From: Vermamoeba vermiformis
Lineage: Eukaryota
Assembly: GCA_045837725.1 (NCBI GenBank)
Contig: JBEWZL010000077.1
Span: 558,001-622,000 of the forward strand
DNA length: 64,000 bases
Reading direction: 5' to 3'
This document shows, piece by piece, positions 22,726 through 28,360 of this stretch; positions within the stretch are counted from its first letter, which is position 1, and each line of letters begins with the position of its first letter. Under the pieces are notes generated by a model. That model was not told the DNA's origin and did not search any database. It was given only the letters and a program-made list of their open reading frames with translations. The position numbers and the translations under genes were made by a program.

Positions 22726-25611
22726 TTAGTTCAACTTGCAGTTCTCAATCTTGATGCCAGTGTTCGATTGCACGGGCGAGGCAGGGAAGAAGCAGCACAC
22801 ACCGCTGACTTGAACGGTGTGGCCGTCAATGGTGAAGTCAGGGCTCGTGACCGACGAACAATCTTCGCTGACCCACGGACCTTCGCCGAGACCCCTGTTG
22901 CCTCCCTGAGCGGTGAACAAGGTAGGACGCAATTGACCCATTTCATTACGCTCGCAAGTCAGTTGGGCGTGATAGCTGGCTGACGGGAAGCTTTGACCGG
23001 CAGGGATTGAAGTGACCGGGCCAATGAACACTTTGGTCGAGGGATCACGCACTTCAATGCCCGATGTGATTTGAGCGGTTTTCTTGAACGCCTCAGCTTT
23101 AGCATCTATAAACGATGGTTAATAACGTAGCTCCAAAAAGCGGATCTGAAAGCACCTACCTTGATCGAATGCAACAGCCTCATTACTGTATTCTGTCAGA
23201 GCACGAGCGAGATTAGCGCTCTTAGAGTCGCTCCAAGTGACTACTTCGTGAATAGGTCTCAGCTTGTAGTAAATAATGTCGGGGTTTGACTTGATCGAGT
23301 CGATCCACTTGTCCCAACTAAACTCAAATGTTAATACTCATAGACTCATATTATCGAGTACTTACGAGTTAGCATTCTGATTGAGAGGATCGCCACCAAA
23401 GAACTTCATCGTTTGTTCGGAGTTTTGGCTGTAAACTTGATCTGCTTGACCCGTCTGACTCATCGATGACTTGCTCGCAGTCATAATACCGATATTAATA
23501 CCAGCCTATAATATCATATTAAAGGTCATGTCTATCATATAGATCGAATATTTTGACTAACCTGTTGCTTGACGTAGCTGCTGCTGTACGAGTCCAACAA
23601 GCACTTGGCGAAGAATGCGTCGTACTGGGCTGAACCGCCGAGAATAGCCATCGAATAGAAGTGCGTGCCCCATGTATTGAAGATACTTCTATATGCATCG
23701 GCATCGTAGCTATCGGGCAATGCATCAAGCGCTGCCTTCAAACTTGGGTGAAGAGGAGGCATCAACGCTAAATAACCGTTAGAAATCGTGCCAAGATAGG
23801 GCTCAAATAATTAATAGGACGTACTTGCAATAGGAGCAAATTCCATTTTGTACAAGCTTCGGTAGTCCAAGCTGATAATACGGGACTGCGACTTTTCGAA
23901 GTAATTCGTGATGACCTTCAAGGACTCTTTGCTCTTCTTGAACAAACCGAACAGCGCCGATGAAGTCGATCGCTCTTTAACCCAGCCTTGATAGCTCTCA
24001 ACGTCGTTGAACACGAAGCTACCTTGGATCGAGGTCACTGCAACGACAATATTAGATCTAGGATAAAAAGACATGCTCGATATTCCAATATGTGTCGTAC
24101 CTTCGGCTTGCTCTGAGACGAAGATGTTGTCAGGGAGATCCCAAGTTTGAGTCGGATCGAACGAAGGCTTCATTTTCTTGCCACTGTAAGTTGGCGCAAA
24201 TATAGGCAACCTGTCATATTTTGTTAATAATTTGGTACACTCGGCAAGCACGAAGATTTTCTTACTTCATTTCGTTGGTGATTGCATCAAGACCGTTGAA
24301 AACTTTGTCAGATCCGGTAGGAGGATTGCTATTCTGCTTGACGCTCTTTTTGCTAATAACATTACCACCGATCGATCCAGTAGCAAGATACTTTTGAGTA
24401 AGTTGCTTAATGTTGTTAGCTGCGGCGCTGAACTCAGCAGGGATCGCCTTCCACAGATCTGACCACGTGTGTTAGCTACATCCGGCAGAGTTGAAAATAA
24501 TATCATACCAGTCATAGTACAGTTCAAGTAAGTCGGATACTTGGCAACGGAGTCAAGCCATTCCTTTTGGGTCTGGTCAGTCATAAGACCTGGATCTCCG
24601 CCGCGGTAGAAAGTGTGAACTTCAGATCGCTTGTTGAAGGTCTCATCCTGCTGTTTTTCCAACTGTTCCTTAGAAATGCCGCCGCCTATTGTACGTCAGG
24701 CATATTGTTTGTAAATGATACCGAAATTTAACGTACTTAGACCGATGCCAATACCGTAGATCTGGATGTTGAACTTGATTGACAATTGAGACTTTCTGAA
24801 CTCGTCACTCATGCCAGAGTAGTACGTCGAGTCCATAAACTGGTCAACATTGACTTGACCTCCAAAACTGCAGCTCGTAGCAAAATGAGTGCCGTAGAAA
24901 TCAATAAAGCGCTGGTATTGTTCCAGATCACTGTCAGAATTGATTGTAGCGGGCAAAGAAGCAAGTGCAATGCGGAATCGATAGTCGATATTGCTTTGAT
25001 TGAATGGCAATTGTTGCAATTGGTAAAACGACCACCATTTGTTCGCGGATGTGGCTGTAACTTCGCCTTTGTTAATGTACTCTTGAACCAGCTTATGTTC
25101 CTTGCTATAATCCGCGGATACTGAGAAAGCGAAAGGAAGTGCCTTCAAGCTAAGACTAAATGACGAGGCTTGAACTCTGAACAAGAAAAATAAGAAATTG
25201 TACCAGATTCGTTAAAATTCGTTTCGTGGAAGCAAATAGCGTTCCGTATAATTAATAATAACATAATACCAACCTTCTATAATCTTCATCGGTTTTAATA
25301 GTGTTTCCAACGCTATAATCCAAAGATCTGCCCGTTGTTGTGGCTATTAATTCGTCAGGCACTACGAATTTAATTTTCGTGCTAACATTTGTCCATGTTT
25401 GATTTTTGCTGTAATTCATGCGGTAAATAGGCAGTTTAGGTACACCTTTTACTGCATCGAAGCTAGCACTCAAAAAATCAACGCCAGGAATTGGGTCCAA
25501 CCCTATTATAATTAATATTAGCTACAATGCAATAATATGTTATAATAAGATACCTTGGCACTGGATGGCCGCAAATAGCACTATAAAGCAAAAAACGACC
25601 TCTTTGAGCAT
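22726..25611 (-). CDS. Secreted protein with two tandem MACPF domains and a Cys-rich C-terminal domain (gene A)
   Basis: Signal-peptide-like MLKEVVFCFIVLFAAIQCQ; MACPF signatures FIDFYGTHFATSCSFGG (~24860-24910) and IFNTWGTHFYSMAILGG (~23635-23685); YRGGDP and FFGGDP..W..S...P motifs; C-terminus SASYHAQLTC..GVCCFFP..CKLN. Confidence 0.85.
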
Positions 25612-25817
25612 TTTGATCAATATTCAAAGAAGGCTCGCAGTATTATAGTGTGCCGCCTCTGGTCTCTTTATTGAGTAAACTTTATTTAAGGAAATGGAAG
25701 GCGAAAGTTTTCGGCGGATGTGGTTTTGATAGGCAAATTTTATGGCCAAGCAAAAACGGCCGCAACCAAGCCAATTTAAAGCTCTACGATATAATAGCGA
25801 CGACATATGCTTAAATA
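25612..25817. promoter_or_regulatory. Putative bidirectional promoter of the MACPF pair
   Basis: 206 bp between divergent ATGs; TATAATA on the minus strand (25641-25647) and plus strand (25790-25796); CCAAT at ~25771. Confidence 0.5.
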
Positions 25818-28360
25818 ATGTCTCGCTGGTCTATTTTGCTGTACCTCACTGTGGCGTTAACATGTACCTGCGCCATCGGTACGTTTCCTAAAAATCTTTT
25901 AAAATCAAACCTTTACTAATTATTTTAACAGAGAAGACCAGTCATATCGAGCGAGGGTTCGATATTATGGAGAATAGTCCTAGGATGCATATATTTGACT
26001 TTTCTTCAAACCCAATCCGCGGACAAAAAAATATTTTGTCTGCACCTTTAGTATATACCCCCACAATTAATAAGGACGATTATATTATTGGATATGATGT
26101 GGTATCATTAAGGTAAGAATATTAAACGAGAAGAATGTTCAATAACAGATTCGCTTTAACTTTAGAGTGGAAGTTTCAGTCGCACAATTCTCTTATGAGT
26201 GGAAAGTCGAAGAACTGCCTGTGGATAATTTTTTCACGACAATCGTCAATTTACTACCAAAACAAATCGAAAAAGCAGCCGATCAGCAATTGTACCGCGA
26301 TTTTGTTAGTACCTTTGGTACACATGCCCTGGACAACTGCTCATTCGGAGGAAAAATTATTGCGTCACTTCGTATTCACAAGGACTACTTCAAGGTGAAG
26401 ACGTCGTCATTTATCATAAAAGAGTCAGAGAAACTTGTCGCACAACGCATCTACAGCTTGATCGGCCAACAAACTCATTTAGAAAATATTGACACCGAGT
26501 TTGCCGCGCACTGCTTCATTGACGTAGAATTCGAAGGTATGAAACCGATTACTCTTCAAGACCTAATTTTGCGTTAAGGTGGCAATGAATCTGCATCCGA
26601 AAATGAGTGGATCGGCACGTTGTCGGAAGAGAACACCAAGCCCATTGAATGTAGCGGGCCACATATCTATGAAATCGTGCGCGATGTTGATGTGAGAAGG
26701 AACCTCAAGGTCGTCTTAGAGAAGTACTTGGGCAACAACAAACGGTCGAGCCTTGTTGCAGCTCAATCAGGCGCGACAAACTTGCCGGGAATTGAGAAAT
26801 TTGGCCTCGGTTTGGATGTCACCAACGGCCTCAATAGATTGAATGTATTTGACTTTGAATACACGAGCGGCACAACTTGGAACAACTATGCAACCCCCGA
26901 CGGATGCGCGGTTTCAGACGCTGATCTCTCGAGCTTAAGAGGTATAACAACAAAAAAATCAGTAGTATGTTAGTACGTACCGACGAATATCCTTTGTAGG
27001 CACTTGGGTCTTCGAGGATGTCAATAAGTTCATTGAATGGCAAGCGCAACGGGCTGCGACCTCACCCCAAGGAGGGGTGTTCAGCCAGACTGAAGAAGTC
27101 AAATCGTTCATTAATCAGTAAGTACTTGCCAGCAATGATAAGCGTAATGGATATTAACAACTGAATAGATACTTTGAGAAAATGAATTCGCATACCGTGT
27201 CGTTGGACTACGTGGTCAGCTATCAAATCAAGCTGCAAGGTCCTCCCAAGCTTCACGCCTTCTTCCAAGCTGCAATTGACTCGATGCCCTCGTCCTATAG
27301 CGATGTCTATAAGAAGTAAGTCAAGATCTTCATTAACGGCAGATCTAACAAACCTGTGTAGGTATGTTGGTGACGGGTTCAGTGGTTGGGGCACGCACTA
27401 TTCAAAGGAAGCTGTTATGGGTGGCATGGCTCGGTATGATGCCTATTACTCTAGTTGTATGATTAAGGTCAATTCGACTGAATACCTGACGAAACAAGTA
27501 CGTTTGTCACAGATCCGCATCAAGTCTTGATTTGTACTTACATCTCTTAGGGCGGTATTCAATTCGGCATTATGTCCAGCAAGAACTCGTGGACGTCATC
27601 GTCTGAACTGCTTGACAACTACTACGAGCGAAACGCGATGTCGGTTGCGTCGTTCATCGGTGGAAACTCTGTTCTCTCCGTATCACAATGGGATCAATGG
27701 AGAAGCACAGTAGCGAACAACCCCGAGCGTATCTACTATAAACTTAGTCCTATTGCCGATTTGATCGATGACCCGGCCAAAAAAGCGAACTGGAATCAGG
27801 CTGTGCAAGAGGTCCAACAAGCAGCGCAGCAGAAAGCAGACCGTACGTTCAATATTGGTATAATATAAGTACTAACCTTGTGTATAGAACTCAAGCTTGA
27901 TAGCTTGCTTAAGCCGAAAGTAATCTCCGGTGCGCTGGAAACTCGTGATCCGAATGTGGTTGTCACTTTGGGTAGCAGCGCTGTGAGGCTCGGACCTGGC
28001 CAAAATTTCTCGCCCGCAACATATCACGCCTCGTTAGTATGCTCGCGTGATTCGAACGGCAACCTGATTGCTTCTCTCACAAGGTAATTAATTTGACATT
28101 TGTCAGATTCACGTTAAATAATTCAGTAATCGATTCAAACAGTCGTTAATTTGCCTAATTCGTACTAATAAAATTTCAATAACAGAAATCAGCAAACATT
28201 AGGAACAAGCCAACCTGTAATGAACGGATGCGCGCAAGTCTCAGCTGTGTTCACGGTTGATCAATGGTCGGTGCAAGGAAAAGGATACTGCTGCTTCCCT
28301 CCAACAAAATTGGCTAACGAAGGAGGAGCCTTAGTTGTAAAGGAATGTCAGCTTGCATAG
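25818..28360 (+). CDS. Secreted protein with two tandem MACPF domains and a Cys-rich C-terminal domain (gene B)
   Basis: Signal-peptide-like MSRWSILLYLTVALTCTCA; signatures FVSTFGTHALDNCSFGG (~26300-26350) and FSGWGTHYSKEAVMGG (~27375-27425); LPGIEKFGLGLD; FIGGN..W..TV..NP..IYYKL.PI; C-terminus PATYHASLVC..GYCCFPP..ECQLA*. Confidence 0.85.

Follow-up and report, generated by a model that had tools for sequence, protein, structure and literature searches.

Do two neighbouring genes for secreted, MACPF-domain proteins encode the two halves of a single pore, or does their arrangement have another origin? The question is raised by a stretch of 64,000 nucleotides from the amoeba Vermamoeba vermiformis (contig JBEWZL010000077.1, positions 558,001 to 622,000; the whole stretch is called the window below), in which two genes, here named gene A and gene B, lie head to head on opposite strands. 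An earlier note on this DNA had described them as a divergent pair of double-MACPF proteins and had proposed a co-expressed, hetero-oligomeric, two-component pore. The analysis reported here indicates that A and B belong, as new and divergent members, to an old eukaryotic family of wide distribution in which a first and a second MACPF domain (D1 and D2) follow each other in one chain, an architecture that is thus not unique to this locus. On balance we think it likely that the two genes are inverted-duplicate sisters of this secreted D1-D2 family, with A as a pore former and B as a specialised variant held under selection.

Gene models and layout of the locus

Gene models were built from the sequence of the window by chaining open frames through GT..AG introns, and the resulting exons and domains are collected in Table 1. 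All 19 introns of the two genes have GT..AG ends and are 42-102 nt long, and the region, with short introns and a base composition of about 41-45% G+C, is eukaryotic sequence. The start codons at 25611 (-) and 25818 (+) bear out the divergent pair, 206 bp apart, that had been described. Each strand of the spacer carries a TATAATA word, found by eye and a putative promoter element, at 25790-25796 (+), 22 nt before the start of B, and at 25647-25641 (-), 30 nt before the start of A.

That A and B are diverged paralogues was likewise upheld, the proteins being 28% identical over 630 residues (E 2e-74) and 29% identical in a global alignment, with 630-670 residues aligned. At least four introns of the two genes coincide in alignment column and phase: one after the signal peptide, one between R and V, one ahead of the C-terminal domain, and a phase 0 intron before AGINIGIM in A and GGIQFGIM in B. 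The last of these, which separates YVKQQ from AGINIGIM and YLTKQ from GGIQFGIM, is the shared intron that had been named earlier; it is real, and at least three more accompany it. The nucleotide repeats at the locus consisted of a faint residual inverted similarity between the A and B copies only, tblastn found no third copy within the 64-kb window, and no Rfam family was matched between 22000 and 29000. Both N-termini look like signal peptides, as had been noted, with a short polar or charged stretch followed by a hydrophobic core; this was judged by eye only, as were the hydrophobic N-termini of many family relatives.

Two MACPF domains in each protein

Pfam scans were run on in-frame exon pieces of A and B, not on the spliced proteins, and the MACPF family (PF01823) was read against its gathering score of 21.5 bits. 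In gene A, exon 3 matched at 2.1e-14 (54.6 bits, profile 3-120) and exon 4 at 9.6e-4 (19.8 bits, below the gathering score, profile 135-188), while the second half of the protein was matched through exon 8 (1.8e-11, 45.1 bits, profile 43-103) and exon 10 (3.9e-9, 37.4 bits, profile 172-214). In gene B, the first half was matched by exon 3 (1.5e-9, 38.7 bits) and weakly by exon 4 (0.079, 13.5 bits, below the gathering score), and the second half by exon 7 (5.9e-4, 20.5 bits, also below the gathering score) and exon 8 (5.2e-8, 33.7 bits). No Pfam family was matched by the remaining exons of either gene. Both halves of A and of B were thus recognised as MACPF, as the earlier note had expected, and the two signature motifs that it had read in each protein were recovered as well: the pattern [YFW]GTH-x7-GG occurs exactly twice per protein, once in each of the four domains.

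Judged from the alignment only, the helix-cluster segments (CH1/TMH1 and CH2/TMH2) are of family-typical length in A D1, A D2 and B D2, and the two second domains are 34% identical to each other. A D1 also has stretches of alternating polar and hydrophobic residues at the expected hairpin sites, strongest at amino acids 224-237, in a crude scan that is too coarse to rank the domains.

An old tandem family

When longer proteins were searched by words with gene A exon 3, no match was obtained, which reflects the limit of its sensitivity, as the later HMMER result made clear. Relatives were then defined with the same exon as query in a full HMMER scan that covered 1.84 billion representative proteins and, at E<=0.001, returned 145 matches, the best at 3.2e-21 and most of them 22-34% identical. 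A family domain model of 310 positions was derived from 19 members, A included and B not, and applied to the 145 relatives; no domain of at least half length was found in 13 of them, one in 65, two in 56 and three in 11. Pfam confirmed two or three MACPF stretches in each of the ten top multi-domain matches tested. Residues 20-640 of A are colinear with proteins of about 630-660 amino acids (P0024 at 5.5e-65, P0149 at 1.5e-62, P0011 at 3.5e-62 and P0044 at 1.5e-58), and 29 of the 152 proteins fetched have a single alignment to A that exceeds 480 residues. The three-domain relatives, among them P0014, P0015, P0017, P0023, P0036 and P0043, are chains of 1017-1409 amino acids, some of them from bdelloid rotifers. 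One Rotaria protein (P0008) has a chitin-binding CBM_14 domain besides its MACPF-type domains.

Organism names were available for six of the 20 clusters looked up and span amoebozoan, heterolobosean, metamonad and bdelloid rotifer lineages: Echinamoeba exundans (a EukProt transcript), Carpediemonas membranifera (KAG9394743.1 and KAG9395592.1), Willaertia magna (KAL9652752.1), Rotaria sp. and, twice, Didymodactylos carnosus. Like A, these proteins have a putative signal peptide followed by D1 and D2. In their source databases the relatives are labelled 'MAC/Perforin domain', 'MACPF domain-containing protein', hypothetical or unnamed. In our literature search neither a paper on double-MACPF proteins from free-living protists nor an experimental study of the D1-D2 family turned up.

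The history of the tandem was read from a tree of both domains of 20 family members (40 rows). All 20 first domains, together with the D2 of P0054, fell on one side of a branch with a support of 99, and 19 of the 20 second domains fell on the other. Because D1s group with D1s and D2s with D2s, the D1-D2 tandem is, on this tree, ancestral to the family and not a local invention. Within the two groups A_D2 and B_D2 were sisters (support 98), and the placement of A_D1 and B_D1 among the first domains lacked resolution. In a tree of whole proteins (20 rows, after removal of seven proteins of at least 900 amino acids, two fragments and two near-duplicates) A and B were again sisters, with supports of 100/99. 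The pair is thus best read from these trees as the product of a lineage-specific, local inverted duplication, and the head-to-head layout follows from such a duplication of sister genes.

Gene B has lost a segment of its first domain and evolves faster

In the family alignment, the segment between the N-terminal strand region and a conserved 'LP' helix is about 85 residues long in A and in every homologue shown, and about 35 residues long in B. By its place in the MACPF profile this segment is the first helix cluster (CH1/TMH1). Against the family domain model, which had been built without B, B D1 aligned at positions 9-33 and 136-306 only, some 100 positions being replaced by 47 residues. Since introns 1 and 2 of gene B are only 53 nt each, neither could hide an overlooked exon, and B D1 is predicted to be without the CH1/TMH1 segment that would supply the first membrane hairpin. 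A deletion of this type was seen in none of the aligned family relatives. B D2, in contrast to B D1, is complete (model positions 4-307, E 1.3e-53). The 'four distinct MACPF modules' that the earlier note had assigned to the pair were therefore an overstatement, because one of the four has no hairpin-forming segment. Having lost it, B cannot, as far as its sequence can tell, be a pore subunit equivalent to A.

Branch lengths point in the same direction. B has a branch of 1.63 in the whole-protein tree as against 0.90 for A, and in the domain tree B_D1 has the longest branch of all (1.85), compared with 0.83 for B_D2 and 0.69 for A_D2. By these measures B evolves faster than A, with the excess located in its first domain.

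A C-terminal domain private to this lineage

Beyond D2 the two proteins end in homologous domains of about 125 residues. Of the earlier claim that these are homologous, Cys-rich C-terminal domains, the homology stands and the term 'Cys-rich' does not, given that the aligned domains have five conserved cysteines. The domain matched nothing in Pfam at E<=10, PHROGs or NCBIfam, and its matches in the PDB, by sequence and by profile, were at chance level (best E 0.16 and 0.7). It was present in none of the 152 family proteins fetched; a word-based search, made without a full HMMER scan for this domain, recovered two near-identical fragments only. Near-identical fragments of the domain lie on metagenome contigs of 181-186 kb. 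Two groups of candidates from the ESM Atlas, phage hypotheticals (0.78-0.80) and a cyanovirin-N (CVNH) cluster (0.75-0.77), lie below the meaningful level, and CVNH is at most a tentative lead.

The tandem-MACPF relatives in the databases differ from A and B in this respect; they are 20-30% identical and most of them end right after D2, at about 630 amino acids, without the 125-residue domain. P0024 carries a Pfam ML (lipid-recognition) domain where A and B have their C-terminal domain, and hhalign found no similarity between the two (probability 0.06%), so that the ML domain was discarded as a homologue. The C-terminal domain thus appears to be an addition private to this lineage. By analogy with the C2 domain of perforin and the ML domain of P0024, it is likely to have a targeting role.

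Comparison with known MACPF systems

A profile of 26 family members was compared with the PDB. Its D2 half matched whole MACPF domains, with perforin-1 (residues 14-349) at 1.8e-27, C6 at 1.3e-26, Toxoplasma PLP1 at 1.6e-21 and MPEG1 at 1.8e-15, and also C7, C8 alpha/beta, C9 and bacterial and insecticidal MACPFs; the D1 half matched C8 beta. Weak matches were made to pleurotolysin B (on the D1 side, 1.2e-5) and to astrotactin-2 (8.4e-5). Gene A exon 3 alone matched perforin-1 at 2.3e-5.

Perforin-1 and C6-C9 (PDB 3nsj/7pag, 3t5o, 6h03) resemble A and B in having a MACPF domain with the signature motif. They differ in having a single such domain per chain, and their C2, EGF, TSP and LDLRA domains were not found in A or B by Pfam. 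The complement membrane attack complex (MAC) is a hetero-oligomer of separate single-domain chains. MPEG1, or perforin-2, acts inside phagocytes against bacteria. It is among the proteins matched by the family profile, and for a phagotroph it is a plausible analogue in function; unlike A and B, however, it has a single MACPF domain, a P2 domain and a membrane anchor, and no such regions were detected in the pair. Pleurotolysin A/B, a two-component MACPF system, is a model for a pore made from two genes, but there the partner is a small aegerolysin lipid binder and not a second MACPF protein, and no aegerolysin-like gene was found among the neighbours of A and B. A published parallel in architecture comes from parasites: a review (PMC7522308) describes three-MACPF proteins predicted in Theileria and Babesia (TA18285, BBOV_III000410), which have a mass of about 140 kDa and a C-terminal region specific to apicomplexans, and asks whether fewer chains per pore suffice when each chain has several MACPF domains. 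Like A and B, these proteins as described there have more than one MACPF domain per polypeptide; unlike them, they have three and belong to parasites.

RNA evidence and selection

RNA evidence was taken from Logan contigs of two runs (X6 and X7) of a close relative, most pieces being 95-99% alike to the window. The contigs are unstranded, of low depth (4-11) and from few samples, and the statements below concern the 15 of 17 joints and the 40 of 81 base differences that were listed. Contig joints matched nine of the ten gene A introns, intron 1 being the exception, and the X6/X7 runs thus hold spliced gene A RNA.

Gene B presented a different picture. Its span was covered, and sense introns 1-3 were retained (pieces 25866-26925 and 26343-26921). 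In its 3' half all five joints listed have CT..AC ends, that is, GT..AG on the minus strand. Read by eye against the window, two loose contig ends pick up the gene B sequence at about 26982, which implies two more minus-strand introns with one donor, the first running to 26921 and the second as far as the gene A exon 2 acceptor (25503/25502). All seven of the minus-strand introns inferred across gene B have canonical GT..AG ends, and in the X6/X7 samples there is minus-strand transcription of the locus.

The antisense RNA covers window positions 26921-28248 (-), with introns at about 28214-28071, 27876-27733, 27541-27486, 27353-27307, 27195-27090 and 26980-26921. Each antisense intron of the 3' half overlaps a sense intron of B, and the antisense exons hold no long open frame, the upstream ones having stops in all frames. 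Several of its donors mirror sense-intron signals, twice the CTAAC branch site (GTTAG on the opposite strand) and once the word GTACGT; those at 27345-27349, 27872-27876, 27535-27541 and 26975-26980 are reverse complements of sense signals, and GTACGTAC is nearly its own mirror. Such mirrored signals may explain why the antisense introns lie over sense introns.

Differences between the close relative and the window speak to the coding status of both genes. There were five indels, of which the four in the span of B (25907, 26156, 26952 and 28102) all lie in predicted introns and the fifth (22639) lies downstream of the stop codon of A. Among the base differences listed, 27 are synonymous and five non-synonymous in gene A, and seven are synonymous and one non-synonymous in gene B. 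Since synonymous differences dominate in both, the frames of A and B are, by this comparison, under purifying selection. A metagenome contig of 2665 bp (L001), which begins inside gene A exon 3, carries an orthologue of gene A with 66-84% identity per exon and the exon order kept; it comes from a relative that is about 75% identical and is the only related locus found. Small matching shares were also seen in water, soil and aquifer metagenomes (X5, X9, X11-X15) and were not used as evidence of habitat.

Possible roles of A and B

Gene A keeps every feature of the family and most likely encodes a pore-forming protein, the mechanism being carried over by analogy from perforin, C9 and MPEG1, for which it is established. 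The protein would be exported, its C-terminal domain would dock it onto a target membrane or surface, and its chains would assemble side by side, each counting as two ring positions. The helix clusters of each MACPF domain would then refold into beta-hairpins lining the pore. B may act in an accessory or modulating role, or together with A as its partner. We infer from the sequences that the proteins are secreted and form pores, and likewise their target and any contact between A and B.

Several observations weigh against this reading. The MACPF fold of the domains of A and B was judged complete from profile coverage alone, and some MACPF proteins, such as astrotactin-2, are non-lytic. On the RNA side, gene A intron 1, which joins the signal-peptide exon to exon 2, had no RNA support in X6/X7, and no sense-spliced gene B RNA occurred there among the joints listed. 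One X6 contig end (28 letters, low depth) instead joins the antisense-B exon at about 26981 to gene A exon 2 at 25502, across a minus-strand intron of 1478 nt that skips A exon 1 with its start codon and signal peptide; this isoform might provide gene A with an alternative, non-coding leader or else be a read-through transcript with a regulatory role. In addition, two RNA-seq runs with the same species label (X16 and X18) gave 2 and 6 reads, all 95-99% alike and several partly off the stretch, and neither A nor B was visibly expressed in them. The X16/X18 reads probably come from a paralogue elsewhere. Four X18 reads at 23477-23563 match gene A at 95-99% but have 29 other letters across the exon 8/9 junction, and probably stem from another member of the family that is encoded in the same genome but outside the window.

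B could instead be a non-lytic modulator of A or of self-protection, acting as decoy, chaperone or inhibitor through its C-terminal domain and D2, a proposal that we regard as rather unlikely. The deletion of CH1/TMH1 from B D1, the extreme length of the B_D1 branch and the long whole-protein branch of B compared with that of A all agree with it, as do an open frame intact across nine introns, the 7:1 ratio in favour of synonymous differences, and the sense/antisense arrangement, with minus-strand RNA over B where A is expressed. However, B D2 keeps its motif and full model coverage and could still insert into a membrane, and selection on B is judged from eight differences only.

The two-component pore, in which A and B would be co-expressed from the shared spacer and co-assemble, with B as a non-equivalent initiator or terminator subunit, seems to us improbable. 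Two genes that lie head to head within 206 bp, that are both under purifying selection and that share a private C-terminal domain, suggestive of a common target, are what it would predict; B, moreover, lost one hairpin segment and keeps a conserved D2, and the complement MAC is normally built from unequal subunits. Yet the adjacency itself follows from local inverted duplication of sister genes, 67 of the 145 relatives are multi-MACPF proteins, and B D1 is incomplete. Where A was spliced in X6/X7, the span of B showed sense introns left in place along with seven joints that are GT..AG on the minus strand, and no sense joint of B stood among the 15 of 17 listed. Co-expression of the two genes is thereby slightly disfavoured; the evidence is not decisive, because the contigs are unstranded with a depth of 4-11. 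The earlier note's move from neighbouring genes to a pore that is co-expressed and hetero-oligomeric was thus not sustained.

We give an equally small chance to the proposal that neither protein is a toxin and that both act without lysis, in adhesion, signalling, development or encystment, a kind of role known from some MACPF proteins of animals and plants. Such proteins exist, and astrotactin-2 was among the weak PDB matches; the near absence of reads in two RNA-seq runs would fit stage-specific use, and the neighbouring genes (PARP, exonuclease, kinase) are of housekeeping type and not a toxin cluster. Against this, the family is matched best in the PDB by lytic proteins, namely perforin-1, C6-C9, TgPLP1 and MPEG1, and A D1 has its polar/hydrophobic alternation, on the crude measure given above, at the expected hairpins. 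An obligate asymmetric pore is very unlikely; in it B, its first domain lacking a hairpin, would nucleate or cap an arc of A, in a division of labour like that of C8 and C9 but within one lineage and with double-domain chains, and a long antisense-B transcript splicing into A would be the switch for the A:B ratio. The reading of A as a pore former and of B as its specialised sister is therefore the one that we prefer.

Neighbourhood and feature coordinates

The pair is flanked by a PARP gene and a gene with a 3'-5' exonuclease domain on one side and by a coiled-coil protein kinase gene on the other. The best database relatives of the PARP gene are 31-43% identical and come from oomycetes, animals and plants. 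Elsewhere in the window are LRR genes, a short-chain dehydrogenase gene and a gene with a lysyl oxidase domain, and no toxin or immunity cluster was found in it. The lysyl oxidase domain (Pfam PF01186, 1.9e-11) lies in an open frame at 52658-53572 (+); this domain is uncommon outside animals. The longest open frame in the window, of 1236 amino acids at 47913-51623 (-), matched no Pfam family at E<=0.001.

Table 1. Coordinates, in window positions, of genes A and B, their exons and domains, and the neighbouring genes.
Feature	Position	Strand	Details
Gene A coding region	25611..22726	-	11 exons, 767 aa (amino acids); ATG 25611, stop 22726-22728
Gene A exons	25611-25554, 25502-25274, 25176-24737, 24685-24509, 24458-24266, 24210-24101, 24037-23825, 23767-23562, 23505-23366, 23317-23160, 23105-22726	-	
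Gene A exon 1	25554..25611	-	start codon and signal-peptide-like hydrophobic N-terminus of about 20 residues; read from the sequence, family members start alike
A first MACPF domain (D1)	24373..25497, including introns	-	aa 22-330; motif 24858-24896; family domain model 3-306 of 310 (A helped to build the model)
A second MACPF domain (D2)	23170..24330	-	aa 345-638; motif 23634-23672; Pfam exons 8 and 10
A C-terminal domain	22729..23105	-	125 aa, five cysteines; exon 11
Spacer between the A and B start codons	25612..25817		206 bp
Gene B coding region	25818..28360	+	10 exons, 679 aa; ATG 25818, stop 28358-28360
Gene B exons	25818-25878, 25932-26112, 26166-26536, 26579-26941, 27000-27117, 27169-27315, 27362-27497, 27551-27842, 27888-28083, 28186-28360	+	
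B first MACPF domain (D1), degenerate	25940..26742	+	aa 24-259; motif 26314-26352; Pfam 1.5e-9 and 0.079
B second MACPF domain (D2)	26779..27832	+	aa 272-553; motif 27387-27425; model positions 4-307, E 1.3e-53
B C-terminal domain	27839..28357	+	aa 556-679, one intron inside; homologous to the A domain, five aligned cysteines
PARP gene	18846-20566	+	WGR, regulatory and catalytic domains
Gene with 3'-5' exonuclease domain	~21666-22512		
Coiled-coil protein kinase gene	28563-30195		

Significance

A and B are candidate effectors for prey killing or defence in protists, of modest practical value for now. To the family the locus adds two variants, one being a copy with the orphan C-terminal domain, which is likely to be a targeting module, and the other a sister gene that is without one hairpin segment and yet selected. 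The assembly of MACPF pores has been worked out on single-domain chains, and a linked D1-D2 chain would fix the geometry between two neighbours in the ring. The family, which spans amoebae, flagellates and rotifers, thus offers a natural test of subunit contacts and of the number of chains needed per pore, and could show whether one domain may be structural while the other inserts.

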